From assembly GCA_900542425.1 (NCBI GenBank), contig UQNQ01000002.1, positions 44,843-108,842 on the forward strand: a stretch of DNA of 64,000 nt, in the 5' to 3' direction. Positions within the stretch are counted from its first letter, which is position 1. Each line of letters begins with the position of its first letter. This DNA comes from an uncultured Eubacteriales bacterium (GTDB lineage: Bacteria > Bacillota > Clostridia > Oscillospirales > CAG-272). Below are positions 36,346 to 55,442 of the stretch, piece by piece. A program made the position numbers and the translations under genes. Below the pieces are notes generated by a model, which worked only from the letters and a program-made list of their open reading frames with translations, ran no database searches and was not told the origin of the DNA.

Positions 36346-36376
36346 ATCTGCGAAAAAATGAAGGAGAATATAAATT

Positions 36377-37348: not shown

Positions 37349-37936
37349 ATGAAGCGAAAACAAATACAAACGCTCTTTTTAACAGGTCTCATTCTGTCGT
37401 TTATCGGATGGGTTTGGGAAACCATATTTTCTTTTATCATACACAGCCCCAATGACAGAGGCTTTCTTGTACTGCCTTTTTGTACAATCTACGGATTTGC
37501 GTTAATTTTTATCTATCTTCTCTTTGGGACCCCGTCGGATATGCATCTTTTCGGTCGTTCGATTTTTCCAAATCATGCATTTCCGCGATATTTGGCTTAT
37601 TTTTTCTCCTCCGCCCTGCTTGCGACGGCAATTGAACTTGTAACCGCTGCCTTTTTTGAATCCTTTTTTGGTATTAAACTGTGGAGTTATACGTTCTTAC
37701 CCGGCGGAGAATCTGAATTTATTGCGCTGCTACCTTCTCTGTTTTGGGGTATTGCCATTACCCTATTTATGAGATTCCTCTTTCAGCCGATTCATCTTGC
37801 CGTAGGCAAAATTCAGCCTAAAATTTTAAGCGGACTATTCTGGGTCTTTCTCATCGCAGTGCTTGCGGACTTGACATTCAATTTTGTTTACTTGTCTGTA
37901 AACGGCACACATTATGTACTCCCGTTTTTTGATTAA
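37349..37936 (+). CDS. polytopic membrane protein, CmpB/DUF1113-like (putative ABC-transporter type IV family)
   Basis: Opening FIGWVWETIF...NDRGFLVLPFCTIYGF and later KLWSYTF resemble that family by eye. The start is taken at MKRKQIQ. Confidence 0.5.
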   Translation: MKRKQIQTLFLTGLILSFIGWVWETIFSFIIHSPNDRGFLVLPFCTIYGFALIFIYLLFGTPSDMHLFGRSIFPNHAFPRYLAYFFSSALLATAIELVTAAFFESFFGIKLWSYTFLPGGESEFIALLPSLFWGIAITLFMRFLFQPIHLAVGKIQPKILSGLFWVFLIAVLADLTFNFVYLSVNGTHYVLPFFD

Positions 37937-38011
37937 ACAAAGAAACGAAAACAATTCAACCTGAAATCTCTGGCTTTTCCTAAAGTCAGAGATTTCAGCA
38001 TTTTCGACGTT

Positions 38012-39073
38012 TCAGGAAAGAAGCTTCCGATTACATTCCGCAACTCTCGCCGCTAAGGCTTGATAGCGTTCCTCCCCACGCACACAGTCAAACCATTCCC
38101 ATCCATGCGGTCTTTCAAAAAAATCGAAACATCTCGGTATCTTTTTATAAGTCAAATTTCGAAAGCAATGACAATGATAGGGGATTTCTGTCCCATCCGG
38201 AATGGAAAACCACCGTTCCAGCATTTCCACAACTTTTTCCATTACCTGATACCCCTCCTCAATCTCACCGGAAGCAAACAGTCCTGCACAAAGACGAGTA
38301 TTGAAAAAAGCGTAATCCCAAAGAAAAGCCTCGCTTTCGTTTTTCTCCGATACTACATCCAAAAGCTTCAGCGCAATACGGTTGCCTTCCACACTTTGAG
38401 ATGGCTCGCCGTGCCAAAAACGCATATTAAAACAAATATTCCTAATGGCATCTAAATTCATTTGTTCTTTTATTTTTTCTCGTTCTTCTGCTTCTCCACG
38501 GAACTCACAGCGAGCAAGACGGAGTTCATAAGCCGTTTTTCCGAATTGGCTTTTCCGAATCCATTCTTCAACCTGTACCTCGCTTTCCTCTGTACATACC
38601 ATGATTTTTATCGCCCTCATCTGAATAGAGTGATCACTGCACTCCTCCCATATTTTACTGCAAAAGCGGCGAAGTTCAGTTAAAAGCTCTTTACTTCCCA
38701 TCCGAATCCGCATCTGCAAAAAAGAACAAAACTGGATCAAAACATCCCAGTCGCGTGGGTATTCATAAATCATCTCTCTCCAAAGTAAAAGAGCTTCATC
38801 ATATTTTCCTTCCGTTTTGAGTCTTTGAAGTCTCTGACAATATTCATTTTTCTTTTCATCCATGCTGATTCTGTCAGTTCCCATCAGCTGATCCATTGAC
38901 ACGGAAAAAAATCGGGCAATTCTAGGAAGCATCTCGATATCCGGATAAGCGGCGCCCGTTTCCCATCGGGAAATCGCTTGGAACGACACACCAAGCGTTT
39001 CCGCAAGCATTTCCTGCGTCATCCCCTTTTCCTGACGGCAGCGCCGGATATTTTCACCGATATACAGTTTCAT
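38012..39073 (-). CDS. XRE-family HTH regulator with a long all-helical (TPR-like) C-terminal domain
   Basis: The N-terminal 65 aa form a typical HTH_3 domain (IRRCRQEKGMTQEMLAETLGVSFQAISRWETG). About 290 aa of helical repeat region follow. Confidence 0.8.
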   Translation of the reverse strand: MKLYIGENIRRCRQEKGMTQEMLAETLGVSFQAISRWETGAAYPDIEMLPRIARFFSVSMDQLMGTDRISMDEKKNEYCQRLQRLKTEGKYDEALLLWREMIYEYPRDWDVLIQFCSFLQMRIRMGSKELLTELRRFCSKIWEECSDHSIQMRAIKIMVCTEESEVQVEEWIRKSQFGKTAYELRLARCEFRGEAEEREKIKEQMNLDAIRNICFNMRFWHGEPSQSVEGNRIALKLLDVVSEKNESEAFLWDYAFFNTRLCAGLFASGEIEEGYQVMEKVVEMLERWFSIPDGTEIPYHCHCFRNLTYKKIPRCFDFFERPHGWEWFDCVRGEERYQALAARVAECNRKLLS

Positions 39074-39552
39074 TCCTTTTCCTTCCTTTCACAAAGCATC
39101 CTTGACAGCCGCATTTTCATTATAACAGTCTTTTTTTGCTTTTCCAAGCCTTATCACGAGAGAATTTTTCTCGCAATAATTGAATCACTAGGCGAAATAA
39201 TGAAGATTGCCAGCGTCAGCAATCCCACCCGCTTCTTATTTCTCTTTCCCCCAAAAAACTTATTGTTTTATTGCCTGAAGTCAAAAGAATAAGTGCATTC
39301 CGCAATCATCTTTTTCAACATCAACAAGATTATCTTTTCCTTTTATAAGCCAGTCTCTCTTATAGAATATCATATATTATTTTTTATATCGATACGACCT
39401 ACCTGTTTTTCATAATACCATAACAGAAGCAAACGCTTCCGCGCTGGATTTCTACAGCCGAAAGCGTTTGCTTCTTAAATTTTACATATGTTTTTTGAAG
39501 ATGAGCAGCAGCATATATCTGTGGTTCCGAGGAATACCAAAAAGCTTTGCCC

Positions 39553-40035
39553 TTACTCTTCCACAATTGTGATCTTCTTCATTTTCTGTTCTGAGAGCGG
39601 CTTATCTGCATAATCCGTATCGACCACGGCAATTTTATCCAGTACGTCAAAGCCGTCCGTCATTTTTCCGAACGCGGCATATTGCCCGTCAAGATGCGGC
39701 GCATCGCGGTGCATAATGAAGAACTGAGAACCTGCAGAATCCGGGCGCGCTGAACGCGCCATAGAAATGACGCCGCGCGTATGTTTCAGCTGGTTTTTGA
39801 TACCGTTCGCCGCAAATTCTCCTTTAATCTGATAGCCGGGTCCTCCCATCCCAGTACCCGTCGGATCGCCGCCTTGTATCATAAACCCTTCAATTACCCT
39901 ATGAAAAATCAGCCCGTCATAAAAGCCGCTTTTCGCAAGCTTTACGAAGTTTTCCACCGTAATCGGAGCTGTTTCCGGATACAACTCCAATGTCATCACT
40001 CCGCCGTTTTCCATTTCAATTTTTGCTTTTGTCAT
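39553..40035 (-). CDS. ppiB: cyclophilin-type peptidyl-prolyl cis-trans isomerase
   Basis: FHRVIEGFMIQGGDP and SAGSQFFI motifs. The start is taken at MTKAKIEMENG. Confidence 0.93.
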   Translation of the reverse strand: MTKAKIEMENGGVMTLELYPETAPITVENFVKLAKSGFYDGLIFHRVIEGFMIQGGDPTGTGMGGPGYQIKGEFAANGIKNQLKHTRGVISMARSARPDSAGSQFFIMHRDAPHLDGQYAAFGKMTDGFDVLDKIAVVDTDYADKPLSEQKMKKITIVEE

Positions 40036-40111
40036 ACTGCCTCCTAAGCGCCAGAACGCATTTTTATTTTTTCTTGATTCTACCATATTCCACACCGTGT
40101 GGCAAGTATCT

Positions 40112-40693
40112 TTACAATTTTTTTACGATAAGATAAGAAAACAAATAGGCACAAAAAACAAGAAGCGTAAAATTGATGCCGCTGTAAAAGAATACGTAAA
40201 GAGAAAGCATCCATAACACGGAAAGGCACGCACAGGTTGAAAGATATAATACTCTATCCGCTGTTCCCTCTCCGAAAAAACGGGAAAGAACGGCACCGAT
40301 CATACGCCCACCATCCAGCGTTTTCACTGGAAGAAGATTCAGCACCGCAAGAGAGGAAGAAGCTGCAAATACGGAAGCGGCCACCTCAGACGGCATCCAT
40401 ATTCTCGCCGCGGCAAGATAAAGAAGATTCATAATAGGACCTGCAGCTGCAATTAGAAATTCTTCGGAATAAGACGAAGCGGCAGAAAGCCCTACAGAAA
40501 ACCCAACGGGCATAAGATGAACTTCCATAATCCGTTTTCCAAGCATCCTCGCCGCAATAATATGTCCTGCTTCATGCAGAAGAACAGAAGAAATTGCCGC
40601 AAATGCATACAGCCGCGGCATCACGGCAAGCAGCAAAAAAATCCCGGCAGCAGCAAACGGATGCACACGGAACCGAATTCTGCCGATTCTCAT
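40112..40693 (-). CDS. M50 family site-2 metalloprotease, short form (SpoIVFB-like)
   Basis: 193 aa, polytopic, with an intramembrane HEAGH zinc motif. Its start overlaps the ytvI-like gene end. Confidence 0.7.
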   Translation of the reverse strand: MRIGRIRFRVHPFAAAGIFLLLAVMPRLYAFAAISSVLLHEAGHIIAARMLGKRIMEVHLMPVGFSVGLSAASSYSEEFLIAAAGPIMNLLYLAAARIWMPSEVAASVFAASSSLAVLNLLPVKTLDGGRMIGAVLSRFFGEGTADRVLYLSTCACLSVLWMLSLYVFFYSGINFTLLVFCAYLFSYLIVKKL

Positions 40694-41790
40694 GAGGCCT
40701 CCTCCTTCCGGCGCGGCTTAAATGCCGCAATTGTATTTTTAACAATCACAACCGCCAGTGGAAGAAGCAGCATGCCAAAAAACCCAAAGGCTTTCAGCCC
40801 TACATACATGGAAACCAGCGCAAGCAATGGATGCATACCGATCCCTGCTCCGACAATCTTGGGTTCTAAAATCTGACGGAGCACTGAAATAACCGCATAC
40901 AGAATCAAAAGTCCCACAGCTGTGCGGATATCTCCGGCAAAAAACAGATAAACAGACCACGGAATCAGAATGGTTCCGGTTCCGAGAACAGGCAGTATAT
41001 CCACAAGCGCTGTCATAAGCGCAAGCAAAAACGCGTATTTTTGCCCAAGAATGAGAAAGCCGATAAACAGCTCCGCAAAGGTAAACAAAAAAAGGATTAC
41101 ATAAGATTTGAAATATTTCATCAAGGTATGCCCCGTTTGCCCATACATTTCCCGCAGTGCATCGCGCGGTTTTCCGTGTACATGTGTTTTGATATAGGAA
41201 ATAATTTTTTCATAATCCGCACAAAAATAAACAGCGGACAAAACTGTCACCACGGAAAAAATCAACACTTGAGGAACCGCAGCGGCAATTTTTCCGGCAT
41301 ATCCGGGAATTTTGGACGCAAAGGTAAAAACAGCGTTCTTCAGCATGTCTGTCAGCGCCTCTCCGATCGTATCCCGCAAAGTATCCGCATCCTCCCCGGA
41401 GAAAAAAGGAAGCCCCGCCGCAAATTCGCCAATCTTGTCAAGCATTGCCGTAAAATTGGAAAGGATCGTATTTTCACCAGCGGCAATGCCGCGGGCAAGT
41501 GCGCCAAGCTGTTCTGCCGCCTCCATGACAGCCGCAAAAAGAAGTCCGATTCCTGCACTTAAAAACAAAATAACAAAAACCACGGATACAATTCTCTGTG
41601 GAATTTTTGTTTTTTTTGCAACGGCGGCAGCCGGACGTCGCAAAAGAGAAGCAGCCGCAAACGCCAGCACAAATGGCAGCAAAACAGGGAAAATATACTT
41701 AGCAATTACATAAACCGCTAAAATCCCGAGTAAACTATAAAAAACAAGATATACTGTCCGCCGATAAGGCTCCTCCGGAAGAAATCCCAT
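40690..41790 (-). CDS. ytvI: AI-2E/UPF0118 family membrane protein, YtvI-like (sporulation integral membrane protein)
   Basis: 366 aa with about 8 TM helices and AI-2E family topology. The YtvI assignment comes from overall resemblance and context. Confidence 0.65.
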   Translation of the reverse strand: MGFLPEEPYRRTVYLVFYSLLGILAVYVIAKYIFPVLLPFVLAFAAASLLRRPAAAVAKKTKIPQRIVSVVFVILFLSAGIGLLFAAVMEAAEQLGALARGIAAGENTILSNFTAMLDKIGEFAAGLPFFSGEDADTLRDTIGEALTDMLKNAVFTFASKIPGYAGKIAAAVPQVLIFSVVTVLSAVYFCADYEKIISYIKTHVHGKPRDALREMYGQTGHTLMKYFKSYVILFLFTFAELFIGFLILGQKYAFLLALMTALVDILPVLGTGTILIPWSVYLFFAGDIRTAVGLLILYAVISVLRQILEPKIVGAGIGMHPLLALVSMYVGLKAFGFFGMLLLPLAVVIVKNTIAAFKPRRKEEAS

Positions 41791-42051
41791 ATGTGACTCC
41801 GTCCCGATTCGATTTCGGTTTTACCGGAAATTTCCCGCTTTCCCGATTTTACCTTGACAAAACGAATCCTTTATGATATGATTTATTTTATGTAAGGGTA
41901 AGTTTATTTATTCAGCATCGGAAAAAGAGAGACCACCGCAATTTATCCCTTTGCGGACATGGTCGGACCGTATGATGGATTTTTATATGATTTGAATCAA
42001 AATTGTCGTCTCGGCTAAAAGTTATATTGAGACGGCAGAACGGAGTTTACC

Positions 42052-42732
42052 ATGAAAAAATTTTTAGCTTTGCTTCTCGTAATATGTATGAGTGCATTTA
42101 TTTTCGCCTCCTGTAAGGAAGAATCCCCGCAAGAAACTACAGGCACAGGCGAAACCACTTCCGGTAGCACTTCCTCTTCCGGGACCACAGCAACCACCGC
42201 TGCCACGGAGACAACACATGTATTCAATGATCCGCAGGTCATTGACAGTCTTGATTATGATTATATTATCCGGACGATTGAAGAGAACAAAGAGATTGTC
42301 GGCGTTGCCGTATATACATGGAAGACCGCATCCGACAGCATTGTTTTTGACAGTGAATATGTGCTTGACGATAAAACATATCCGGTTCTTCAAATCGGTG
42401 TCGGTCAAGGGATCCTTACTTTCCAAAAGCAGCTTAAATCAGTCACCATCCCCAGTAGCGTACAGAAAATATCAAAAATTGCGTTCAGTTACTGCTCTGC
42501 ATTGGAAACCCTGAATCTTTCCGAAGGACTTGAGGAAATCGGTGAAATGGCGTTTTGGAATTGCTCCTCGCTGGAATCGGTATCTATCCCTTCCACCGTT
42601 ACAACAATCGGGAAAAATGCTTTCGCAGACTGCTCCAATCTTAAAACGGTAACGATTCCTCGTGCCTTTGAGAATCAAATTGATGATATTTTTGCCGGCT
42701 GCGGCGAACTGGAAATCACGTATATTGATTGA
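42052..42732 (+). CDS. lipoprotein with BspA-type leucine-rich repeats
   Basis: Signal peptide with lipobox FASC, a Thr/Ser-rich linker, then repeats of the form SVTIPSSVQKISKIAFSYCSALETLNL. Confidence 0.8.
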   Translation: MKKFLALLLVICMSAFIFASCKEESPQETTGTGETTSGSTSSSGTTATTAATETTHVFNDPQVIDSLDYDYIIRTIEENKEIVGVAVYTWKTASDSIVFDSEYVLDDKTYPVLQIGVGQGILTFQKQLKSVTIPSSVQKISKIAFSYCSALETLNLSEGLEEIGEMAFWNCSSLESVSIPSTVTTIGKNAFADCSNLKTVTIPRAFENQIDDIFAGCGELEITYID

Positions 42733-42801
42733 TTTTGGACCAAAATAAAAATTCCTTCATACAATGGAAACAAACACATTGTAGGAAGGAATTTTTTATT
42801 T

Positions 42802-43659
42802 ATGACCATTCATGTAGTAAAAAAAGGAGAAACACTTTCCGGCATTGCCTCATCTTACGGCGTATCAGAAAATTTTCTTGCGATATGGAACGCAATTTCA
42901 GAACCGTATACCCTTGTCGTAGGACAGGCGCTTCTGATTTTGACTCCATCAGGAACCTATACGGTAAGAGCAGGCGATACCATCGCGTCTATTGCCACAA
43001 GGTTTGGCACAACTGCACGGGAACTTTTTGCAAACAATCCCAATCTTTACGGCGGAATTTTACCGATTTTCCAGGGACAGACACTCATACTCGGCTGGGA
43101 AGAAAAGAAATCCGATACGGTACGGATCAATTCCTATGCATACCCGTTTATTACCGATGAAGCACTTTACGGAACACTTCCCTACCTTACATTTCTTTCT
43201 CCTTTTACATACGGCTTTACTCCACAAGGAGAACTGATTCCTCTTGACGATGAACGACTGATCCTTTCCGCTCTCAGTTACGGGGCGTCACCGCTTATGC
43301 ATCTTTCAACCCTTACCAAGGAAGGAACCTTTTCCAACGAGCTTGCTTCCGCCGTACTCAGAGACAACAACGCGGCAGATACACTGATTTCCAACATTTT
43401 AGAAAACATTCAGGAAAAAGATTATTACGGACTGGATATCGATTTTGAATATGTTCTTCCGGCAGATGCCGCAGCATATGCAGCTTTTATCGAAAAAGCA
43501 AGAATACGCCTAAACGAAGCGGGATATCCCGTGATTGCTGCGCTTGTTCCAAAATCTTCCCGTGATCAGCCCGGCTCCTTCTATGAAGGGCACGATTACG
43601 CGGCGATAGGTGCCGCCGCCAACGCTGTTTTTGTCATGACCTATGAATGGGTTTGCTGA
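42802..43659 (+). CDS. 5' segment (283 codons + 2 junction codons) of an interrupted YaaH/SleL/YdhD-type spore peptidoglycan hydrolase (2x LysM + GH18)
   Basis: Two LysM domains (aa 3-46 and 53-98) and a GH18 barrel start with the catalytic block YGLDIDFEY. The reading frame ends VMTYEW-VC-stop exactly at the insertion junction. Confidence 0.9.
   Translation: MTIHVVKKGETLSGIASSYGVSENFLAIWNAISEPYTLVVGQALLILTPSGTYTVRAGDTIASIATRFGTTARELFANNPNLYGGILPIFQGQTLILGWEEKKSDTVRINSYAYPFITDEALYGTLPYLTFLSPFTYGFTPQGELIPLDDERLILSALSYGASPLMHLSTLTKEGTFSNELASAVLRDNNAADTLISNILENIQEKDYYGLDIDFEYVLPADAAAYAAFIEKARIRLNEAGYPVIAALVPKSSRDQPGSFYEGHDYAAIGAAANAVFVMTYEWVC
43640..43651 (+). repeat. attL core (CCTATGAATGGG)
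   Basis: Identical to 49782..49793 and located at the point where the GH18 frame diverges. Confidence 0.8.
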
Positions 43660-43704
43660 TGATAATACCCTCTAAAAAAAGAATGAATTTGCCGCAAGTT
43701 CTTG

Positions 43705-43950
43705 TCAATCCTCCAAGCCAAGCAAATAATTTACCGATACCCCCAAAACCTCAGAAAAATATTTTAGTTCATAATCCGGAACAACACGGTCTCCCACCTC
43801 AATCCTGCTGATTGTTTTTTGCATCATTCCCACTCCGATGAGTTGAAGCTTCACTGCCAAATCATTTTGTGTAAGCCCTCGCGCCTCTCTTGTTTGCCGA
43901 ATCCGTTTTCCGCAGAAATTAACTTTGCCATTTTGACCATTTATTTTCAT
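43705..43950 (-). CDS. XRE-family HTH protein (phage cI/Cro-like)
   Basis: 81 aa from MKINGQNG, with an HTH_3 core IRQTREARGLTQNDLAVKLQLIGVGMMQKTISRIEVG. GGAG lies 9 nt before the ATG. The gene sits 53 bp inside attL. Confidence 0.8.
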   Translation of the reverse strand: MKINGQNGKVNFCGKRIRQTREARGLTQNDLAVKLQLIGVGMMQKTISRIEVGDRVVPDYELKYFSEVLGVSVNYLLGLED

Positions 43951-44098
43951 CTTATCCGGCTCCTTACTATAATAGAATATATTAACATTATCACACAAGA
44001 AACCGTATCATTATCCCAAAGATGACTAAATGAGAAATCATATTATTTTTTATAGATGAAAATGAAAAATTTTGTGTTTTTATATCTTTTTCATGATC

Positions 44099-44136
44099 TA
44101 AAAATCCGACCTCATTCATAGGTCGGATTTTATTTT
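44099..44136. terminator. bidirectional intrinsic terminator inside the element
   Basis: Stem AAAATCCGACC / GGTCGGATTTT with a 9-nt loop, flanked by A- and T-runs. Confidence 0.7.
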
Positions 44137-44242
44137 CTGAAAAAACGCCCAAAGTCTCTTATAAAAAAGATAGCAGAGACCGTCCGTCTCCTTCATAATA
44201 CCATTCTATCATAATTTATGTGCCGATGTTGTCTGTTTTCGT

Positions 44243-44431
44243 TTACTGTCGTTTGTTTTCTCTGTCTGTCGCTATCCTACCGAACTGCTGTAAAATATGA
44301 AGTATTTCAGCTTCCCGCAGCGCCCTCTCTTCCTCTGTCAAAATCGGACGGAAAATATTGACCGTTGTGCTGTCCATCTGAATCGTTTTTACCCGATATC
44401 CGTTTTCTGTGATTCTCCATTCATGATTCAT
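44243..44431 (-). CDS. 62-aa hypothetical protein (orphan)
   Basis: ATG at 44431 lies 5 nt after GGAAGGGGGGG. The protein reads MNHEWRITENGYRVKTIQMDSTTVNIFRPILTEEERALREAEILHILQQFG. I do not recognise a family. Confidence 0.5.
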   Translation of the reverse strand: MNHEWRITENGYRVKTIQMDSTTVNIFRPILTEEERALREAEILHILQQFGRIATDRENKRQ

Positions 44432-44861
44432 ATTCGCCCCCCCTTCCACGTTATTTTATGCGACGCTATATTGGGGTCCTCTTACAATCTTTCTTCTTTC
44501 CATAAAGAAAGGGAGAGTCTTTTGTCAGTCCGCATTTTCCGCCATATTGTTTTTCCGTGATGTATTTTCCGATTATGTAAAACACCCCTTGATTTACAAA
44601 TCAATTACATTCACAAAAGAAGTAGCCTCCGTCTGCGGAACAAAAGAAATACCGAAAAAGAAAAATCACAAAAATTCCTCTCCGGTATTTCCTTTTATCC
44701 TACATCGCTCTGCATCCTCACTCGGTCTGTTCCTGAAGATACATACATCTAGAACTTTTCTGCTTGATATATCCTCTATTCTTCTACGCCGAATAGGCTG
44801 CAATCCTAATCTGTTTTTATCTTGATAACCAAAATATTTTCGATTCAACAATCTCTCTATA

Positions 44862-46505
<1,644 letters not shown>

Positions 46506-46718
46506 GGTTCATCCCTGCTTTCTTACTTTATACTTACAGCATTATATTCTCAAAAATATTTTGATGTTCATTTACTTTTGAAATCGTATACCTATTTTTT
46601 ATCTATCATGAATCCAATATCTACTCATGCACCTTATCTCTCTGATTTGAATTGATTTAAATTTAGGATTTATCTCTCAAAAAACACGCCACGGGAATCC
46701 GTTCATCTCCGTTATATA

Positions 46719-46746
46719 AAAAAAGTCCGTGAAAACGGACTTTTTT
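46719..46746. terminator. bidirectional intrinsic terminator after mutY
   Basis: AAAAAAGTCCGT gaaa ACGGACTTTTTT, located 40 nt after the mutY stop. Confidence 0.8.
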
Positions 46747-46785
46747 ATTTAAAGTTTTAGGCATTTGATGCCCATGAAAAATCTA

Positions 46786-47859
46786 TCAATGATTTTTTTC
46801 TTCGGCATCCTGTTCCATGATCTCAAGATACGCGCGCAGTGCTGTCGGAATCGCATAATGTGTCCGTATTGTCTTCGCACTTTCCCATGTGAACGCATTC
46901 AAAGGGGTTACACATTCTGCAAGGTATCCCGTCATATGCCATTCAACATGTGTAAAAATATGAACAGCATTTCCGCATATCCCACAAGACAATACTTCTG
47001 TACCAAGATTGCGAATATAGATCGCCGCTTCCTCTGGCGTAAACTTTCCCGAAATATTCGGAAATTCCCAAAGTCCGGCAAGCAGACCCCTGTTCGGTCT
47101 TTTTTGAATGGCATAATATCCGCGGCAAGAAAGGAGAAATACCGTTAGCTCCTCCCGTCTGCGAGCTTTTTTCGGACTTTTCACCGGAAATTCTTCCGCC
47201 CGCGAGGAAAGACCTGCTTCACACTGCCGAAAAAGAGGACAACTCTCACATTTCGGCAAACCGTTCGGAATACAGATATTTTCTCCCAGCTCCATAATCG
47301 CCTGTGTCAAATTACCAGCGTCTGCCCCAGATGGATAAACAGTCCGCAATGCATCTGTGACCTGTTTTTTTGTTGCGGGCAATGCAATATCGTCTGTGCA
47401 TCCAAGAAAACGCATCACCACCCGAAGAACGTTTCCGTCTACAGCAGGTTCTGGTCTGCCAAAGGCGATAGAAGCAATCGCACCTGCGGTATATTCCCCA
47501 ATTCCAGGGAGTTTTTTCAATTCCTCCGCCGTATCCGGCAAAGCGCCGGCATAAGACGCCATTAACATCTCCGCACTTCTTTTTAAATTTCGCGCCCGGC
47601 TGTAATATCCGAGTCCCTCCCATAGCTTCATTAGTCTGTCGTCGGACACTGCGGCAAGTGCGGACACCGTGGGTAACTCATATAGGAAACGCTTGTAATA
47701 CGGAATAACTGCCGCAGTTCTCGTCTGCTGAAGCATGATTTCCGAAATCCATACATGATATGGCGTCGCATCTACACGCCATGGAAGCTCCTTTTGGTTC
47801 TTTTTGTACCAAACAAGAAGAGGCTCTACAATATGTACCAGCCGATTTTCTTTTTTCAT
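46786..47859 (-). CDS. mutY: A/G-specific adenine DNA glycosylase MutY
   Basis: 357 aa with an HhH-GPD domain (LPGIGEYTAGAI), a 4Fe-4S Cys cluster (CIPNGLPKCESCPLFRQC) and a C-terminal NUDIX-like domain. Confidence 0.9.
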   Translation of the reverse strand: MKKENRLVHIVEPLLVWYKKNQKELPWRVDATPYHVWISEIMLQQTRTAAVIPYYKRFLYELPTVSALAAVSDDRLMKLWEGLGYYSRARNLKRSAEMLMASYAGALPDTAEELKKLPGIGEYTAGAIASIAFGRPEPAVDGNVLRVVMRFLGCTDDIALPATKKQVTDALRTVYPSGADAGNLTQAIMELGENICIPNGLPKCESCPLFRQCEAGLSSRAEEFPVKSPKKARRREELTVFLLSCRGYYAIQKRPNRGLLAGLWEFPNISGKFTPEEAAIYIRNLGTEVLSCGICGNAVHIFTHVEWHMTGYLAECVTPLNAFTWESAKTIRTHYAIPTALRAYLEIMEQDAEEKNH

Positions 47860-48225
47860 TCTCTCAAATCGCCTTTCATCTCATCGGTATTTCAATCTAC
47901 CTTTATACTTTATGACTGTATCATAAATCGGGCGATTTGTCAATTTATACAGATAAAACGACTTTTTTCACAGACTTTTCCAGATTTTCTCATCATCCCG
48001 TTTTCTCTCAAATTTATTAGAAAGAAATCTCCACCGTTGTACCAACCGTTATAGAGATTTTTTATATTTTAGATATTGAAAACTCGAACATCATCCGAAG
48101 CAGCGTCATTTTTAACAAAACGGCTGGTTTTTTCATATAATGGGACCGGAATGATCTAAAATGAGCCTACATTCTTTTTTATGAATCGTTTTTCAAACTT
48201 ACACTGTGATTCAAAAGGAGACCCT

Positions 48226-49755
48226 ATGGCAGCTATTTATCTTGTATATCTGCGTAAATCACGTCAAGACAATCCGGATGAAAGTGTGGAAGAGGTGCTG
48301 GCAAAGCATGAAATCATGCTTCAGGAATATGCAAAAAAAGAGCTCGGCTACACGATTCCCCGCGAGTGTATTTACCGCGAAATTGTCTCCGGCGAATCCA
48401 TAGAAGATCGAATCGAAATCAAAAAAGTGCTGCTCCGCATGGAAAATCCCGATGTCAAAGGAATCCTTGTTGTGGATCCTCAAAGACTGTCGAGAGGAGA
48501 TTTGGAGGATTGCGGACGACTGATCAATGCGCTTAAATGGACAAATACGCTTGTGCTTACCCCTCCGATGACCTATGACATGAACAATAAAATGGAGCGA
48601 AGATTCTTTCAGGATGAGCTTCTGCGCGGCAGAGATTATCTGGAATATACAAAGGAAATTTTGTGGCGCGGAAGGATCGCTTCGGCAAAACGCGGATGCT
48701 ACGTCTCATCCGTTCCGCCATACGGCTATGACAGAGTAAAAAGCGGAAAAGACTATACTCTTGCGCCCAATCAAAATGCAGACATTGTGCGGTTTGTATT
48801 TGATCTGTACGTCAACAAAGGTATCGCCGCAAGTCAAATCGCACGAATGCTCAATGAAAAAGGAATCAAAAATTTCCGTGGTGGAGAATGGGGCAGGTCC
48901 AGCATTTCCTATATGCTTAGCAATCAGCATTATATCGGAAAAATTGTCTATAATCGGAGACATCATGTCGTTATGATGGAAGAAGGACAACGAACGCAGA
49001 AAAGAACACAGAGCCATAAAAACGACATTATCGTCGTGGATGGGAAGCATCCGGCCATCATCGATATGGATACCTGGAATAAAGCCCAGCATTTGATGGA
49101 AAGAAAAAAAACTCCAAAATTAAAGCATGGCAAAACATTGCGAAATCCGCTCGCCGGCATATTGGTTTGCGGAACCTGCGGACATATGATGACATTGAAT
49201 ATACAAAAGTCCAAAGCAGACCGGCTCGTCTGTACCAGAATATCCTCCGTATCGCACGGAAAATCCGTTCGCCTGCATGATGTTATGAACGCACTGATCG
49301 TAGCACTCGAAACCGCAGAACTTCCACAGCTTCAAACAAGTCTGAAGACACGCACAGAATTTTCTTCGGAAATTCAAACACAAATGATCCGTCGCTTCGA
49401 AAAACAGCTATCCGAATATAAAGAACAAGAAGAAACACAATATGAACTCTTAGAAACAAAAAAATACACGCAGGAGCTCTTTGACAGAAGAAACGCCGTC
49501 CTGCGCGAAAAAATCGAGTTGTGCGAAATGCAGTTAAAAGAAGTAAAAAGCGAAATGCAAGCCCACAACGATGATTGGAATGCCATGATTCAGCTGCAAG
49601 ATGCCCTTGACTCCCTAAAAGATGATTCTTTAGACGCTCAAACAAAAAACTTTATATTAAAAGCTATCGTCGAAAAAATCATCTATAAGCCATCTCCCAT
49701 TCAGAAAACTCACGGAAGCACCGATTTCACACTGGATATTCTATTGAGGATATAG
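48226..49755 (+). CDS. large serine recombinase (SpoIVCA / phage integrase type)
   Basis: N-terminal resolvase domain with the catalytic-serine motif YLRKSRQD, a recombinase domain, the zinc ribbon CGTCGH...C, and a C-terminal coiled coil. AGGAG lies 7 nt before the ATG at 48226. The stop is 26 bp from the attR core. Confidence 0.93.
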   Translation: MAAIYLVYLRKSRQDNPDESVEEVLAKHEIMLQEYAKKELGYTIPRECIYREIVSGESIEDRIEIKKVLLRMENPDVKGILVVDPQRLSRGDLEDCGRLINALKWTNTLVLTPPMTYDMNNKMERRFFQDELLRGRDYLEYTKEILWRGRIASAKRGCYVSSVPPYGYDRVKSGKDYTLAPNQNADIVRFVFDLYVNKGIAASQIARMLNEKGIKNFRGGEWGRSSISYMLSNQHYIGKIVYNRRHHVVMMEEGQRTQKRTQSHKNDIIVVDGKHPAIIDMDTWNKAQHLMERKKTPKLKHGKTLRNPLAGILVCGTCGHMMTLNIQKSKADRLVCTRISSVSHGKSVRLHDVMNALIVALETAELPQLQTSLKTRTEFSSEIQTQMIRRFEKQLSEYKEQEETQYELLETKKYTQELFDRRNAVLREKIELCEMQLKEVKSEMQAHNDDWNAMIQLQDALDSLKDDSLDAQTKNFILKAIVEKIIYKPSPIQKTHGSTDFTLDILLRI

Positions 49756-49781
49756 ATTTTTATGTTATGATCATCGACAGT

Positions 49782-49793
49782 CCTATGAATGGG
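49782..49793 (+). repeat. attR core (CCTATGAATGGG)
   Basis: Identical to 43640..43651. The GH18 frame resumes through it as YEWGYTYGPPMAVAPL. Confidence 0.8.
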
Positions 49794-50230
49794 GATATAC
49801 ATACGGTCCGCCAATGGCAGTGGCACCTCTCGAATCCGTACGCCGTGTCCTTGATTATGCAGTATCAGAAATCCCCGCAGATAAAATTTATATGGGACTT
49901 CCCAATTACGGATATGATTGGACATTGCCTTACAAGCAAGGAGAAACGCGCGCAAAGCTTGTCGGCAATGAGGAAGCTGTCGATATTGCAAGACGCTACG
50001 GAGCAGAAATCCGATATGACGAAGCGGCGGCAACACCATATTTTGAGTATACGGAAAACGGCAACGCGCATATCGTTTGGTTTGAAGACGCCCGAAGCTG
50101 GGCGGCAAAGCTTGCTCTGATCCCCGAATACGGTCTTCTCGGCGCGGGCGTTTGGAATGCAATGCGTCCCTTTACTCCCGGCTGGCTGGTACTCCAATCC
50201 GGATACCGTGTAACCGCTTTTCTGGAGTAA
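49793..50230 (+). CDS. 3' segment (145 codons) of the interrupted YaaH/SleL/YdhD-type GH18 hydrolase
   Basis: GYTYGPPMAVAPL...KIYMGLPNYGYDW...GAGVWN is the distal half of a GH18 barrel. It has no RBS of its own and the frame is open back only to 49748. Confidence 0.9.
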   Translation, partial: GYTYGPPMAVAPLESVRRVLDYAVSEIPADKIYMGLPNYGYDWTLPYKQGETRAKLVGNEEAVDIARRYGAEIRYDEAAATPYFEYTENGNAHIVWFEDARSWAAKLALIPEYGLLGAGVWNAMRPFTPGWLVLQSGYRVTAFLE

Positions 50231-50298
50231 CAGACGAAATTCCGCTGTTTCAAACAGACAAACAGGCTTGTTTCAACGCAATATGCAAACGAAAAAAC

Positions 50299-50340
50299 TC
50301 CCGACAGAGGCATTCACACCTTTGTCGGGACTGTTTTCTC
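50299..50340 (+). terminator. intrinsic terminator after the GH18 gene
   Basis: 12-bp stem TCCCGACAGAGG / CCTTTGTCGGGA (one G-U pair) with an 8-nt loop, followed by CTGTTTTCTCTC. Confidence 0.65.
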
Positions 50341-50390
50341 TCTCCGGCTGTCTACGTCACCAATAGGAAAGGCATACCATTTGTCTTCTG

Positions 50391-50437
50391 CAAAACAAAA
50401 GGCGAGTGCTGCATGGATTCCATGGAATGCACTCGCC
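50391..50437 (-). terminator. intrinsic terminator after asd
   Basis: Stem GGCGAGTGC / GCACTCGCC, followed on the minus strand by TTTTGTTTTG. Confidence 0.7.
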
Positions 50438-50477
50438 TTATCATAACAGGAAAAAATATGCCTGTTTTATCCCGTCT

Positions 50478-51485
50478 TCATTCCTTTGTGATGAGCAGTT
50501 CCGCAATCTGCACGGTATTGGTCGCAGCGCCCTTGCGTACCTGATCACCGCAGCACCAAAGGGAAATGCCGTTCTCATTTGCAATATCCCGCCGAATACG
50601 TCCCACAAAAACAAGATCCTGATCCGACGTATCAAGCGGCATCGGATACCGTTTGTTCTCCGGATCATCGACAAGCCGACATCCGGGAGCCGCAGCGATC
50701 GCGGCACGCGCCGCCTCCGGCGACACCGGCTCTTCCGTAACCAAAGAAACGGAAATCGAATGACTTCTGACAACGGGGACCCGCACACAGGTACATCCGA
50801 CACGAAGTTCGGGAAGATGCAGAATTTTCCTGCCTTCATTCTGCATTTTCATCTCTTCGGTTGTATATCCGTTTTCCAGAAAATCTCCGATTTGAGGAAT
50901 CAGATTATAGGCAATCGTATAGGGGAACACCGACGGCGTATACGTTTTACCGCAGGAAAGCGCCGCAATTTCCTCCTCAAGCTCGATGGGACCGCCGGCG
51001 CCGGCGCCGGATACCGCCTGATAGGTGGAAACGGTCATCGAACGGATTTTTGACAGTTGTCCTATGGCGTTTACCGCCACCAAGGTAACGATGGTAGAAC
51101 AGTTCGGATTGGAGATGATTCCTCTGTGAAGCAGCGCGTCCTCCGGATTGATTTCCGGAATCACGAGCGGAACACCCGGTTCCATACGAAAAGCGCTTGA
51201 ATTGTCAACAAAAACCGCCCCCGCCGCCGTAATATAGGGCGCGAACTCGCGTGCAAGCTTATTCGGTGCGGCGCCAAGTACCAAATCGACCCCGGTAAAA
51301 GAGGTTGGACATGCCTCGCTTACAGCGACCTCCTCCCCATGAAACATAAGCTTTGTGCCGGCGCTGCGCGCGCTGGCAAGCGGAATCAGCTTTTTTACGG
51401 GAAAATTCCGCTCTTCCAATATTCGAATCATTTCGCGCCCGACGGCGCCTGTCGCACCAAGTACGGCAACGCTGTATTCTTTCAT
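50478..51485 (-). CDS. asd: aspartate-semialdehyde dehydrogenase
   Basis: MKEYSVAVLGATGAVG opening, active-site NCST block (SNPNCSTI), and full-length Asd similarity. Confidence 0.93.
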   Translation of the reverse strand: MKEYSVAVLGATGAVGREMIRILEERNFPVKKLIPLASARSAGTKLMFHGEEVAVSEACPTSFTGVDLVLGAAPNKLAREFAPYITAAGAVFVDNSSAFRMEPGVPLVIPEINPEDALLHRGIISNPNCSTIVTLVAVNAIGQLSKIRSMTVSTYQAVSGAGAGGPIELEEEIAALSCGKTYTPSVFPYTIAYNLIPQIGDFLENGYTTEEMKMQNEGRKILHLPELRVGCTCVRVPVVRSHSISVSLVTEEPVSPEAARAAIAAAPGCRLVDDPENKRYPMPLDTSDQDLVFVGRIRRDIANENGISLWCCGDQVRKGAATNTVQIAELLITKE

Positions 51486-51569
51486 AAACCTATTACTCCT
51501 CCGGAACACATCTCGGCTCCGTTTATCATTGTTTTGATGTATTTATTCTATGCGGAATTTTCTGCACCG

Positions 51570-52880
51570 TCACAAAAGACCCTCGCGGCAAAGTCCGTTA
51601 TAAAGACAGCCAATTGCTTTTTCATGATATTGCGCATCGATTCCGACGATAATATTTAATTCATCCGGAGACTGCACAATGAGCTTGATATTGATTCCGT
51701 TGTCCCCGAAAATTCCGAATACGGAAGCGCTGATGCCATAATGTCCTGCCATATTACGCCCGACAATGGCAATGAGGGACAAGTTCCGGTCAACTGTCAC
51801 ATCTGCCGAAAGCGTATTTTCAATTTCGGACAGAATCGCATGGACATGCTTTGCCGCCTGCTCTTCCAGCACAACAACGCTGATGATATCCATTCCGGTC
51901 GGAATATGCTCAACGTTGATGCCGTATTTCTCAAAAATCGAAAGGACTCGGCGCAAAAAGCCAATCTCTCCCGACATATGTTTTTTATGGATCACAAAAG
52001 AGATAAAGCCGGTTTTCCCCGCAATTCCGGTAACCGGCGTACCCGCGCCGGCATCGCGCGTGATGACGGTTCCGCTATTCTCCGGTTCATTGGTATTGCG
52101 GATATTGATAGCAATTCCACAATCCTGGACAGGAAGAATACTCTCCTCATGCAGAACATTCGCGCCCATATAAGAAAGCTCTCGCAACTCTTTATAGGTA
52201 ATGCGGTCAATCGGTTTCGGATGCTCAGCAAGCCTCGGATCCGCCGAATAAATCCCTGAAACATCCGTCCAGTTTTCATATATCTCTGCATTCAGAAATC
52301 TCGCAAGATAAGAACCCGTGATATCCGAGCCGCCACGGGAAAACAAATTGATATCGCCGTTCGGATATGCGCCGTAAAAGCCCGGTACAACCATGTTTCC
52401 GTATGCCTCAAACGCCCCTTTGACAAGTGCTTCGCTCGCTTCCAAATCCAGCTTTCCATCAAACGAAAAGCGCATCAGTTCCGCAGCATCCACAAAAGTA
52501 AAACCAAGGTATGCGCTCATCAGTTTTGCGCAGAAATATTCGCCGCGGCTGACAAGAAAATTTTGGTCAGTCTCTTTACCGAGTGTTTTTTCCAATTCGG
52601 AAAGCTCCTCTGCAATATCCAGATCAAGCTCCAAAGCCTCTGCAATTTCCCGGTAACGTTCTGAAATAGACTCCCAGATTTTATCATCCGGCACACCGTA
52701 ACGAAGATGCCCGTCCAGCGTATATAAAAGATCGGTAATTTTATTGTCACCCGAATACCGTTTTCCCGGCGCCGAAACAACGACCACCTGACGTCTCTTA
52801 TCCGATGTCACAATCGCCTTTACCTTTTTAAACTGAGCGGAATCTGCAAGAGAACTTCCGCCGAATTTTGTCACTATCAT
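51570..52880 (-). CDS. lysC: aspartate kinase
   Basis: MIVTKFGGSSLAD opening, an amino-acid kinase domain and C-terminal ACT repeats. Confidence 0.9.
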   Translation of the reverse strand: MIVTKFGGSSLADSAQFKKVKAIVTSDKRRQVVVVSAPGKRYSGDNKITDLLYTLDGHLRYGVPDDKIWESISERYREIAEALELDLDIAEELSELEKTLGKETDQNFLVSRGEYFCAKLMSAYLGFTFVDAAELMRFSFDGKLDLEASEALVKGAFEAYGNMVVPGFYGAYPNGDINLFSRGGSDITGSYLARFLNAEIYENWTDVSGIYSADPRLAEHPKPIDRITYKELRELSYMGANVLHEESILPVQDCGIAINIRNTNEPENSGTVITRDAGAGTPVTGIAGKTGFISFVIHKKHMSGEIGFLRRVLSIFEKYGINVEHIPTGMDIISVVVLEEQAAKHVHAILSEIENTLSADVTVDRNLSLIAIVGRNMAGHYGISASVFGIFGDNGINIKLIVQSPDELNIIVGIDAQYHEKAIGCLYNGLCREGLL

Positions 52881-52916
52881 GATTTTTTCTCCGTATTGTA
52901 TGAAAAATACACCGCT

Positions 52917-54224
52917 TTACAAATCGCAGGCAACAAGATCCTCAAACCGTTCACGCCGTACAGCAAGAATATCTCTGCCTTCGCGCAGAATCACAACCGG
53001 AGGTCTTGCCACCCGGTTATAATTGGACGCCATGGAATAATTATAGGCGCCTGTCACAAGCACAGCAAGAATATCCCCTCTCTGCGGCTTCGGGATTCTC
53101 ACATGTTCCTGAATCAAATCTCCGCTTTCACAGCATCTCCCGCCGACAGTACATTCAAAATCCGCAGGTTCTCCCACCTTATCCGCCACCAGAACCGTAT
53201 AAGAGGACTGATAAAGCGTATATCTCGGATTGTCCGTCATACCGCCGTCGATAGAAACGTAATTTTTAAATCCCGGAATTTCCTTTACGCTTCCGACCGT
53301 ATAAAGCGTGATACCGGCATCCGCGACAATGCTTCTGCCGGGTTCCAGCAGGATCTGCGGCATCTCCAGACCGTATTCCTCACATCTTGCTTTGATATGA
53401 AGTGAAATATCTTTGATATTTGCCGAAATGTCGATTTCTGGATCCGTCTCCACGTAGCGCACGCCGAAACCGCCGCCGAGATTCAAAATCCGCGCCTCAA
53501 AACCGAACCGCTCTCTCATTTCCGAAATAAATCCAAGCATAATATCAGCAGCGGTCGTATACGGTGCGATATCAAAAATCTGCGAGCCGATATGACAATG
53601 AAAACCGACAAGCTCCAAATTCATTTTGGATAGCGCCTCTTTTGTGATTTTCGCTGCAAGCCCCGTCTCGATTGCGGAACCAAATTTGGAATCTACTCCG
53701 CCGGTGCTGATCTTTTGATGCGTATGCGGATCGATCCCGGGTGTGATCCGCAGAAGAATCTTCTGACGGATACCGGCTTTTCCTGCATACTCGTCGATGC
53801 GGCAAAGCTCTTCTATCCCGTCTACAATAAAATATCCGATGCCATTTTGAATCGCGTATTCAATATCAAAATCCGTTTTGTTGTTTCCGTGGAAGAAAGC
53901 CCGCTCCATCGGGAAACCGGCAGATACCGCCGTAAACAATTCGCCGGAGGAAACAATATCCGTCCCCATGCCTTCCTCCGCCATCATACGGTAAATCTCC
54001 TTGAAGCTGAGCGCCTTGGAGGCATAAAGCGGGTAGGAGGTCTCCCCGAAATACTTTTTCATGGCAGTCTTATATTCCCTGCAGCGCTCGCGCACCCGCT
54101 TGTCATCGATGAGGAAAAGCGGGGTCCCATATTTTTCTGCAAGGGCGACTGTGTCCATACCGGCAAAAAACAGATATCCGTTCTCACCGGCTGAAAGATT
54201 TGAATGAATCCATTTCTGTTCCAT
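52917..54224 (-). CDS. lysA: diaminopimelate decarboxylase
   Basis: Fold-III PLP decarboxylase (YASKALS lysine, GGGFGV, CESGD). The start is taken at the ATG 9 nt after GGGAG. Confidence 0.93.
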   Translation of the reverse strand: MEQKWIHSNLSAGENGYLFFAGMDTVALAEKYGTPLFLIDDKRVRERCREYKTAMKKYFGETSYPLYASKALSFKEIYRMMAEEGMGTDIVSSGELFTAVSAGFPMERAFFHGNNKTDFDIEYAIQNGIGYFIVDGIEELCRIDEYAGKAGIRQKILLRITPGIDPHTHQKISTGGVDSKFGSAIETGLAAKITKEALSKMNLELVGFHCHIGSQIFDIAPYTTAADIMLGFISEMRERFGFEARILNLGGGFGVRYVETDPEIDISANIKDISLHIKARCEEYGLEMPQILLEPGRSIVADAGITLYTVGSVKEIPGFKNYVSIDGGMTDNPRYTLYQSSYTVLVADKVGEPADFECTVGGRCCESGDLIQEHVRIPKPQRGDILAVLVTGAYNYSMASNYNRVARPPVVILREGRDILAVRRERFEDLVACDL

Positions 54225-54257
54225 TTGTTTTTTCTCCCATATCACGCAATATGCTTT

Positions 54258-55442
54258 TTATGACAGGAATCCGCGCAGTCTTTCCACGGCCTCTTCCGTC
54301 GCCTCACGCGAGCCGAAAGAAGTCAGACGGAAATAGCCTTCTCCGCATGCTCCGAAGCCCGCCCCTGGCGTCCCGACGACCTGAATGCCGTGCAGAAGTG
54401 CGTCGAAAAAGGTCCATGAATCCATTCCATCCGGACAGCGCATCCAGATATAGGGCGATGAAGTCCCTCCCGTGAAGAAAATTCCCTTTTCTCTCAAAAC
54501 ACCGGCAATCAACGCGGCGTTTTCCATATAGTAACCGACAAGTTCCATGCATTCGGCAAGACCGGTATCGGAAAGCGCTGCCTCGGCTCCTCTCTGAACC
54601 ACATACGGTACACCGTTGAATTTCGTTGCCTGACGGCGTTCCCACATCTCACGCAAAGACATACCACCTGCCGAAAGCTCTGACGGAACCACTGTCCAGG
54701 AGCAACGCGTGCCGGTAAACCCTGCTGTCTTCGAAAAGCTGCAGATTTCTATCGCACATGTTCTTGCTCCGTCGATTTCATAAATTGTATGAGGATAATC
54801 CCCTTTGATATATGCCTCGTATGCCGAATCATAGAGGATCAGCGATCCGGTCGACACGGCAAAATCCACCCATTGCTTTAAGCCTGCATGATCATAGACG
54901 GCACCGGTCGGATTGTTTGGTGAACAAATATAAATGATAGCTCCCTCACAAGAAAGTCCTTCCGGTTTCGGAAGAAATCCATTGCTCTCGTCCGCGCGGA
55001 TAAAGGTAATTTGTCTGCCGCTCATGACATTGCTGTCAAAATATACCGGGTATACAGGATCCGGAATCAATACCGGATTGTCCCCAAACAGCTCCGTGAT
55101 GTTGCCTACATCGCTTTTTGCCCCGTCCGACACAAAAATTTCCTCGGCAGAAATGTCCACCTGAAAACGTTTATAATGACGGGAAATCGCTTCTCTGAGA
55201 AAATCATAACCGTATTCCGGCGCATAACCGCGGAAGGTTTCCCGCCGTCCCATCTCCGCAACCGCCTTTGTCATGGCTTCCGTTACGGATTTTGTCAAAG
55301 GAAGTGTAACGTCACCGATCCCAAGCCGGATAATTTTTGCGGTGGGATTTTCCTCGCTGTAAGCCTTTACACGCTTGGCGATTTCGGAAAACAGATAACT
55401 TTTTTTCAGATTCTTATAGTTCTCATTGATTTTGATTTTCAT
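54258..55442 (-). CDS. dapL: LL-diaminopimelate aminotransferase (DapL)
   Basis: MKIKINENYKNLKKSYLFSEIAKRV opening typical of DapL, and a class I aminotransferase with an SFSK PLP-lysine. Confidence 0.88.
   Translation of the reverse strand: MKIKINENYKNLKKSYLFSEIAKRVKAYSEENPTAKIIRLGIGDVTLPLTKSVTEAMTKAVAEMGRRETFRGYAPEYGYDFLREAISRHYKRFQVDISAEEIFVSDGAKSDVGNITELFGDNPVLIPDPVYPVYFDSNVMSGRQITFIRADESNGFLPKPEGLSCEGAIIYICSPNNPTGAVYDHAGLKQWVDFAVSTGSLILYDSAYEAYIKGDYPHTIYEIDGARTCAIEICSFSKTAGFTGTRCSWTVVPSELSAGGMSLREMWERRQATKFNGVPYVVQRGAEAALSDTGLAECMELVGYYMENAALIAGVLREKGIFFTGGTSSPYIWMRCPDGMDSWTFFDALLHGIQVVGTPGAGFGACGEGYFRLTSFGSREATEEAVERLRGFLS

Follow-up and report, generated by a model that had tools for sequence, protein, structure and literature searches.

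Is a spore hydrolase gene that a mobile element has cut in two ever made whole again? The question is raised by a 64,000-nt stretch of DNA (contig UQNQ01000002.1, positions 44,843 to 108,842; hereafter the window, in whose coordinates positions are given unless a contig is named) from an uncultured Eubacteriales bacterium of the CAG-272 lineage. An earlier note on the window had described a gene of the YaaH/SleL type split by a 6.1-kb serine-recombinase element, and had proposed that this element is excised during development in the manner of the skin element of sigK. We conclude that it is a site-specific mobile element, integrated by a large serine recombinase into a SleL/YaaH-type gene. We put the probability that it is excised in connection with sporulation, by analogy with skin and SPbeta, at roughly 0.65.

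The split gene, its junctions and the recombinase

The features on which the argument turns are the following.

42802..43651, plus strand: 5′ portion of the sleL/yaaH-like gene, encoding two LysM domains and the proximal part of a glycoside hydrolase family 18 (GH18) domain that includes DIDFE; the open reading frame (ORF) as it stands runs to a stop at 43659
43640..43651, no strand: core of the left attachment site (attL), the left direct-repeat copy CCTATGAATGGG; the empty-site alignment stops here
43652..49793, no strand: intervening element, 6142 bp including one repeat copy, 6130 bp unique; absent from the empty-site contigs L090 and L091
48226..49755, plus strand: large serine recombinase, 509 amino acids (aa), at the right edge and reading towards the 3′ gene segment (Pfam, PHROG and PDB matches)
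49782..49793, no strand: core of the right attachment site (attR), the right direct-repeat copy CCTATGAATGGG (repeat match and empty-site alignment)
49794..50230, plus strand: 3′ portion of the sleL/yaaH-like gene, encoding the distal GH18 part, without a ribosome-binding site of its own
50299..50330, plus strand: terminator-like hairpin 3′ of the reconstituted gene

The two ORFs are what they had been taken for. The first (42802..43659, 285 aa) encodes two LysM domains and the first GH18 half, as indicated by Pfam, by the DIDFE block and by its C-terminal end, VMTYEWVC followed by a stop. The second (49814..50230, 138 aa) encodes the distal GH18 part and lacks a ribosome-binding site, the 20 nt 5′ of its ATG (ATACATACGGTCCGCCA) containing no Shine-Dalgarno sequence. 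In the 64 kb of the window there are exactly two copies of the 12-mer CCTATGAATGGG and none on the opposite strand, against a chance expectation, by our arithmetic, of ~0.008 copies for one 12-mer in 128 kb. The 12-bp repeat that had been reported at both junctions therefore stands for the window; elsewhere its length is 10–12 bp, depending on the strain, and the core common to all element variants is ATGAATGGG.

Removal of 43652..49793 (6142 bp) in silico restored the reading frame as ...VMTYEWGYTYGPPMAVAPL... and gave a 428-aa product, as the earlier note had predicted. In Pfam, this product has two LysM domains (79.9 bits) and one Glyco_hydro_18 match at residues 183–406, which spans the junction at residue 283/284; the catalytic block DIDFE (D-x-D-x-E) is present. 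The product aligns over its full length with Bacillus megaterium YaaH/SleL (PDB 4s3k; E 7e-89), without a gap at the junction, and with B. cereus SleL (4s3j; E 1e-79), and its GH18 part also matches B. subtilis YdhD (3cz8). The insertion point lies in the codons of a conserved VMTYEW|GY motif, and the gap-free junction motif in the SleL alignments is MTYEWGY(T/S)(Y/G)GPPMAV. The claimed size and architecture of the YaaH(SleL)/YdhD class are borne out by these alignments, and the test that had been suggested, contiguity of the junction, gave an unbroken Pfam GH18 domain and continuous alignment with both SleL/YaaH and YdhD. We conclude that the split gene is, by homology, a spore cortex N-acetylglucosaminidase of the SleL/YaaH type.

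The recombinase gene ends where it had been said to end, 26 bp before the right repeat (stop at 49755). Its start is most likely at 48226 (ribosome-binding site AAAGGAGA) and not at 48181, judging by other contigs and by prophage homologues. The protein matches the Pfam families Recombinase (85.7 bits) and Resolvase (29.2 bits; cut-off 23.3), is borderline for Zn_ribbon_recom (24.2 bits, just below the cut-off of 25.3), and matches the PHROG_95 integrases with an E value of 2e-81. Its only match among PDB sequences is SPbeta SprA/YokA (9dxh; E 1.8e-35, residues 6–494), in which YLRRSRQD aligns with the catalytic motif YLRKSRQD of the recombinase. Relatives that are 76–98% identical to it form a clade that targets sleL. 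A 49-kb viral contig from IMG/VR (L104), the recombinase of which is 72% identical, was considered and rejected, as it has no adjoining GH18 fragment and no matching attachment site nearby.

The empty chromosomal site (attB) reads GTCATGACCTATGAATGGGGATATACATACGG, and the site of the excised element (attP) was reconstructed as ATCATCGACAGTCCTATGAATGGGTTTGCTGATGATAATACC. The latter has the imperfect dyad symmetry that is typical of serine-integrase sites; in three variants the symmetry is best at ATG|AAT, at 15/22, 17/22 and 12/22 (chance ~5.5/22). The crossover dinucleotide is predicted to be GA, inside the shared core.

The same site in other strains and species

Uninterrupted homologues of 422–444 aa number in the thousands in Clostridia, the nearest being 86%, 85% and 81% identical. 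Nearer still is a 428-aa protein in the 90%-identity cluster of the window protein (P0129), which differs from the in-silico product by a single residue. Its contigs, L090 (255 kb) and L091, belong to the same species, are syntenic with the window and carry the gene uninterrupted. They align to 32785..43651 and 49782..60230 of the window at ~98.8% identity, and the two alignment segments overlap by 12 bp, which are exactly the repeat. Because the alignments break at the repeat, the element consists of 6130 bp plus one duplicated core. The uninterrupted orthologue and the empty attB that the earlier note had proposed to look for thus both exist, the attB being exact and in the same species. In-silico alignment, orthologues and empty attB all agree with the structural interpretation that an element splits a yaaH/sleL-type gene, and they show that recombination between attL and attR would give exactly the intact 428-aa gene, a natural allele of this species.

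The interrupted allele was found on dozens of independent contigs in ENA, NCBI and Logan. Complete copies of the element with the same gene order are present on L001–L004, L147 and L148, and partial copies on more than 15 further contigs. An assembly artefact or a chimeric contig is extremely improbable: the collagen-like repeats in the element do break short-read assemblies, and nothing else speaks for an artefact, whereas the same attL and attR junctions recur in dozens of independent assemblies from these three sources.

Among the listed cluster members of the window species, there are ~55 interrupted contigs and 3 intact ones. Three species-level clusters have an insert at this codon, and each of them also has full-length alleles; of the listed members, roughly one in two is interrupted in the second species and roughly two in three in the third. 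(The scan of a genome collection returned at least 80 loci; the representative of the window's own species is not among the loci listed.) A decayed insertion in all relatives, which had been named as the mark of a plain pseudogene, is not what we found; within three species the site is either occupied or empty. A 285-aa protein (P0075) that had been a candidate for a second interrupted species was rejected because of a frameshift inside the contig.

What occupies the site differs between species: small elements in the window species and the second species, and a prophage-like element in the third. In the P0001 cluster (86% identical; contigs L011/L096), the left-end helix-turn-helix (HTH) gene is 63% identical to that of the window element and the related arm reads ...ATGAATGGGGCTAATGATGATAA. 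In the P0003 cluster (81% identical), the left side of the insert encodes a tail-fibre-like protein, a peptidase, a RelB/YafQ pair and ORFs without a family match; the right side encodes a CI-like repressor and Abi_2, then a 509-aa recombinase that is 77.6% identical to the window recombinase, then a 139-aa gene fragment. When the cargo of the window element was compared by tblastx with this related prophage, sampled over 10 kb at its ends, nothing in common was found. The window element may be a stripped-down relative of the prophages that sister species carry at this attB.

This kinship raises the possibility of a switch that has nothing to do with sporulation, in which excision would be reversible or driven by a signal such as SOS, as in ‘active lysogeny’, or of an element that is still mobile. 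The recombinase clade is indeed carried by prophage-like elements of sister species, beside a CI-like repressor and Abi; the next relatives of the recombinase (50–55%) are prophage integrases at other loci, many of them on contigs of 35–46 kb; and an XRE-type repressor stands at the left end of the window element. Moreover, the empty-site strain is 99.6% identical to the window strain in the 5′ half and at least as near to it as the other interrupted lineage is, so the element was either gained, or lost precisely from the germ line, within the species. Against a phage-like switch, this is a mini-element: scans with Pfam, NCBIfam and PHROG found no replication, packaging, lysis or transfer genes among its proteins. 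The promoters described below bear on the same question.

Constraint, promoters and the timing of the proposed excision

If the element were never excised, the two gene halves would be expected to decay. By our arithmetic, a neutral 428-codon gene at a synonymous divergence (dS) of ~0.1 should have ~100 non-synonymous differences, plus insertions and deletions, whereas the observed non-synonymous divergence (dN) is 0.001–0.009. In the 5′ half, 19 interrupted alleles (8 haplotypes) differ by 33 synonymous and 6 non-synonymous changes; in the 3′ half, 7 interrupted alleles differ by 14 and 1. None of these alleles has a stop codon or a frameshift in the respective half. Pairwise dN/dS among interrupted strains is 0.07 for the 5′ half and 0.015 for the 3′ half. 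Both halves are therefore under strong purifying selection, even the 3′ half, which lacks translation signals. The recombinase is constrained as well (dN/dS ~0.2 among strains). Because both halves and the recombinase stay constrained, the halves are probably rejoined; the simplest reading that the substitution patterns indicate is that this happens at some stage of the life cycle.

The element has also diverged together with its host. Between the two interrupted lineages, dS is 0.08–0.11 for the host gene (dN/dS 0.05–0.07) and 0.065–0.083 for the element genes; within lineages both are ~0–0.03. Over 21 pairs, which are not independent of one another, the dS of the element rises with that of the host (r = 0.83), which indicates that the element has long been inherited vertically with the chromosome.

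Two promoter regions bear on when excision might occur.

42739..42766, plus strand: sigma-K-type promoter-like motif of the split gene, AC-N17-CATACAAT (pattern scan; conserved in strains and sister species)
48112..48142, plus strand: recombinase promoter region, TTAACA-N18-TATAAT, overlapping AC-N17-CATATAAT at 48115-48142

We scored the first motif in 81 orthologous genes from different species. The pattern CATANNNT was present 20–62 nt 5′ of the start in 50 of the 81, compared to 6 of 81 in a control window (shuffles: mean 4.7, maximum 12). The aligned sites read G-CATA-n-A-a/c-T, with AC 17 nt upstream; the sigma-K consensus of Bacillus is AC-N16/17-CATAnnnTA, and Bacillus yaaH is expressed in the mother cell. 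From the conserved sigma-K-type promoter and the Bacillus gene, we infer that the host gene is expressed in the mother cell. The only other plus-strand intergenic match to the host-gene motif is AC-N17-CATATAAT, in front of the recombinase. It is kept on L001–L004, the other lineage included, and is absent 5′ of the prophage-borne homologue. As an indication of sporulation-time expression, this sigma-K-like motif is suggestive only. It nonetheless counts against a switch unrelated to sporulation, as the recombinase promoter is unlike that of the prophage and copies the AC-N17-CATA..AT motif of the host gene, and as the target has a mother-cell-type promoter, like the targets in all characterised cases. 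We therefore consider a non-sporulation switch or a still-mobile element quite improbable.

As to sporulation itself, the window contains dpaA (29014-29913, encoding DpaA), so the organism carries a core sporulation-specific gene. With asd and dap genes as further neighbours, the split gene sits among genes of the cortex and dipicolinate precursor pathways.

Several observations tell against excision linked to sporulation. Exact-pattern scans of IMG/VR found no attP junction of the window element or of the related prophage, a degenerate attP pattern had no match in the JGI metagenome collection, and the joined proteins of three interrupted haplotypes had no exact match among 15 billion proteins. 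In the metagenome collection, a pattern for either attL or attP recovered two attL contigs of the related prophage among 38 chance matches. These negatives are weak, because the DNA collections searched barely contain these organisms. No homologue of a known directionality factor was found among the element genes, and no homologue of the 62-aa ORF of the element (orf62; see below) in the 10 kb sampled at the ends of the related prophage. The bases that make up the sigma-K-like motif of the recombinase also fit sigma-70, forming the best such site of the region (11/12 to consensus), so constitutive expression is possible and the sigma-K reading is ambiguous. Recombination with intact alleles could help to keep dN/dS low. 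Empty-site strains exist, so the element is dispensable, and SleL/YaaH is not essential for germination in Bacillus. Finally, the host is uncultured, and it is a spore former by prediction from its genes.

Many of these points would be met by an insertion that is simply tolerated, a remnant that inactivates a dispensable germination gene, is excised rarely and outside development, and leaves the gene effectively off in carriers. With SleL non-essential in Bacillus, such an insertion could be harmless; both states of the site are viable and polymorphic in all three species; and the missing excision junctions, the lack of a recognised directionality factor and the sigma-70-like promoter of the recombinase would all fit. 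However, this account has to explain why ~100 expected non-synonymous differences are absent, with no stops or frameshifts, why a 3′ half without start signals has changed at 14 synonymous sites to 1, and why the recombinase is under purifying selection in an element that lacks transfer genes. We regard a tolerated insertion as rather unlikely.

We thus favour excision linked to sporulation, which would proceed as follows. The element would pass vertically in the chromosome and be excised in the terminally differentiated mother cell during sporulation, as is the case for skin, SPbeta, vfbin and gin. The hydrolase gene, with its late, sigma-K-type promoter, would then be expressed intact, and the forespore would retain the element. 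The recombinase would be transcribed from a promoter that fits both sigma-70 and the AC-N17-CATA..AT motif of the host gene. Directionality would need a factor, for which orf62 is the only candidate.

Known intervening elements, cargo and neighbouring genes

Mother-cell genes are known targets of sporulation gene-intervening elements (PMC6957869). In skin elements, the recombinase lies at the edge beside the 3′ fragment; the elements range in size down to 2.6 kb, and the recombinase is their only common gene content (10.1101/2022.02.25.481979). Characterised targets include sigK, spoVFB, spoVR, spsM, gerE and yabG, and SPbeta-like phages also use spoVK, kamA and others. A passage in 10.1101/2021.11.22.469490 attributes to Abe et al. 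2013 that yaaH, cotJC and yhbH are recurrent integration sites of phages or transposons outside the B. subtilis clade. As the gene family is already listed there as an integration site, yaaH as a target is, going by that passage, not new in principle. To this listing the present case adds a setting in gut Clostridia, the exact codon, a series from prophage to remnant across species, and population evidence.

The nearest parallel by recombinase is SPbeta, the SprA enzyme of which rebuilds spsM in B. subtilis; B. amyloliquefaciens carries degenerate derivatives of SPbeta (PMC4191935, PMC5499854). No protein of solved structure is closer to the window recombinase than SprA. The target there is a mother-cell gene that is expressed late and contributes to the spore envelope, and here a spore hydrolase gene that is probably expressed in the mother cell; and in both cases one attB holds a full prophage-like element in some related species and a small remnant in others. 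The two differ in the target (spsM there, sleL/yaaH here), in that no SprB homologue was found here, and in that the window element is 6.1 kb long, without phage genes and with mutY and a collagen-like protein as cargo. The host, too, differs, being an uncultured gut Clostridia member whose element is known from sequence alone. In contrast to skin in sigK (B. subtilis, C. difficile and others; PMC5025042), the gene interrupted here encodes a structural or enzymatic spore protein and not a sigma factor, so the late programme as a whole cannot hinge on excision. Furthermore, the only solved-structure match of the window recombinase is SprA, and the dependency would be reversed, since the motif before the window recombinase is itself sigma-K-like.

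The gin element in gerE of Bacillus cereus measures 28.6 kb and carries three recombinases and recJ; its excision and the need for GirC and GirX were shown experimentally, and excision is limited to sporulating cells and insensitive to mitomycin C (PMC5595907). Like gin, the window element is not prophage-like, has cargo of the DNA-repair type (recJ in gin, mutY here) and has a short overlapping core. In gin, the small cognate factor GirX sets the direction, for which orf62 is the only candidate counterpart here. The window element differs in having one recombinase in 6.1 kb, and in that what is known of it comes from genomes. In Clostridium botulinum, yabG is interrupted by the yin element, a prophage confined to a single strain, in which a putative sigma-K promoter precedes the gene for a small putative directionality factor (PMC10747680). 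It resembles the present case as a clostridial element in a sigma-K-dependent spore gene, a dependence that is putative here; the window element differs in that it is small, occurs widely in its species and has diverged along with it.

Sporulation-gene rearrangement has so far been characterised almost wholly in cultured Bacillus and a few Clostridium species. The same architecture is present here in uncultured gut Clostridia, where one attB serves both prophage-like elements and a 6-kb remnant, and where population data support the continued use of the split gene without experiment. The concept is unchanged by this case, and its key step, mother-cell-specific excision, is one that we infer. 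The exact sequences of attB, attP, attL and attR make the hypothesis directly testable, and a compact SprA-like integrase with defined sites may have practical interest.

In order, the element comprises an HTH regulator, the 62-aa ORF, the collagen-like gene and mutY (all on the minus strand), then the recombinase (plus strand) and the 3′ gene fragment. Besides the recombinase, its genes are as follows.

43708..43950, minus strand: XRE-family HTH regulator, 81 aa, at the left end (Pfam HTH_31/HTH_3, PHROG repressor families)
44246..44431, minus strand: orphan 62-aa ORF (orf62), with GCATAAAATA 5′ of the gene at 44452-44461
44862..46505, minus strand: collagen-like repeat protein, 547 aa, cargo (Pfam Collagen, PHROG tail-fibre families via the repeats, tandem repeats)
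46786..47859, minus strand: mutY, A/G-specific adenine glycosylase, 357 aa, cargo (TIGR01084 at 291.9 bits, cut-off 286.5; Pfam HhH-GPD and NUDIX_4)

Homologues of orf62 are confined to this element family (5 matches in 5.8 billion proteins), and it has no match in PDB, PHROG, Pfam or NCBIfam. The −10-like block GCATAAAATA before it is invariant in all variants; an AC at 15-nt spacing is not conserved. Its dN/dS is 0.3–0.66, from few changes. It is weakly indicated as a directionality factor, being the sole candidate in the element.

The collagen-like protein has a Cys-rich N-terminus, four non-collagen modules of ~40 aa between runs of Gly-X-Y, and an all-beta, non-collagen C-terminal domain, which had no significant sequence match in PDB and no relative in IMG/VR. 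A single-sequence AlphaFold model reached a predicted local distance difference test (pLDDT) score of 35.7. In other strains, the protein is 601–784 aa long, and short-read assemblies break there. It could be a BclA-like spore-surface protein or a remnant of a tail fibre. On L005 (12118-14943), L006 and L007, a second serine recombinase (560 aa, ~25% identical, on the opposite strand) replaces the 5′ part of the collagen-like gene, and the contigs end at it; the arrangement points to one element nested within another.

When the two element lineages are compared, the dS of mutY is 0.76–0.90 and its dN/dS 0.11, whereas the neighbouring recombinase and host genes have a dS of 0.07–0.10. Since its dS is far above that of its neighbours and its dN/dS is low, the allele was swapped in from a distant source and has stayed functional. 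The only relative in IMG/VR is weak and partial. In the empty-site contigs L090 and L091, no mutY was seen within the 21-kb stretches examined. If the element holds the only mutY of the genome, its precise loss would create mutator strains.

A more far-reaching interpretation, which we think doubtful, is that the element is a domesticated minimal switch, consisting of recombinase, attachment sites, small factor and repressor, that is inherited with the species, has a promoter that converged on that of the split gene, and offers a ‘slot’ for germ-line cargo. The slot would be protected and its cargo exchanged between species, because mutY has a dS of 0.76–0.90 compared to ~0.07 for the recombinase, and because the hypervariable collagen-like gene has itself acquired a second serine-recombinase element. 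In that case, the gene and the recombinase would fire together in the mother cell.

Several further observations concern the surroundings of the split gene. Directly before its start codon lies a hairpin (42752-42793; −22.3 kcal/mol, z = −6.1) followed by a U-run, the 5′ arm of which holds the sigma-K-like −10 and the 3′ arm the Shine-Dalgarno sequence. The layout recurs in many other species with different arms, and in a rough alignment of 11 sequences 5/6 consensus pairs have two-sided changes. The hairpin reads as the terminator of the upstream gene, which would mask the ribosome site in read-through RNA; RNA started inside the hairpin loop would be translatable. The upstream gene itself (42052-42732), of the BspA type and resembling leucine-rich-repeat lipoproteins, has ~75% nucleotide identity between lineages, where its neighbours have 96–99%. 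It is called as 226 or 252 aa, depending on the strain, and appears to be a hypervariable surface gene.

Downstream, asd was identified by Pfam at 50478-51509, and the syntenic genes of L090 are aspartokinase, lysA, an aminotransferase, dapF, dapB and dapA (to 58100). A 185-aa ORF that follows dpaA (region 28454-29913) is possibly dpaB. On the left flank, some 6 kb from the split gene, L001 (3035-4267), L003, L005 and L008 have a TnpV/DUF6809/HTH_17 module that is absent in the window strain. In some strains this module is accompanied by type IV secretion system-like genes (TraG-like), making it a second variable mobile region nearby.

A gene elsewhere may have met a similar fate. At the end of another prophage (L157, 5595-6683), a recombinase that is 53% identical to that of the window adjoins a 362-aa Peptidase_M32 gene, which we take to be short for its family; the integrase family of the window recombinase may thus interrupt other genes too.

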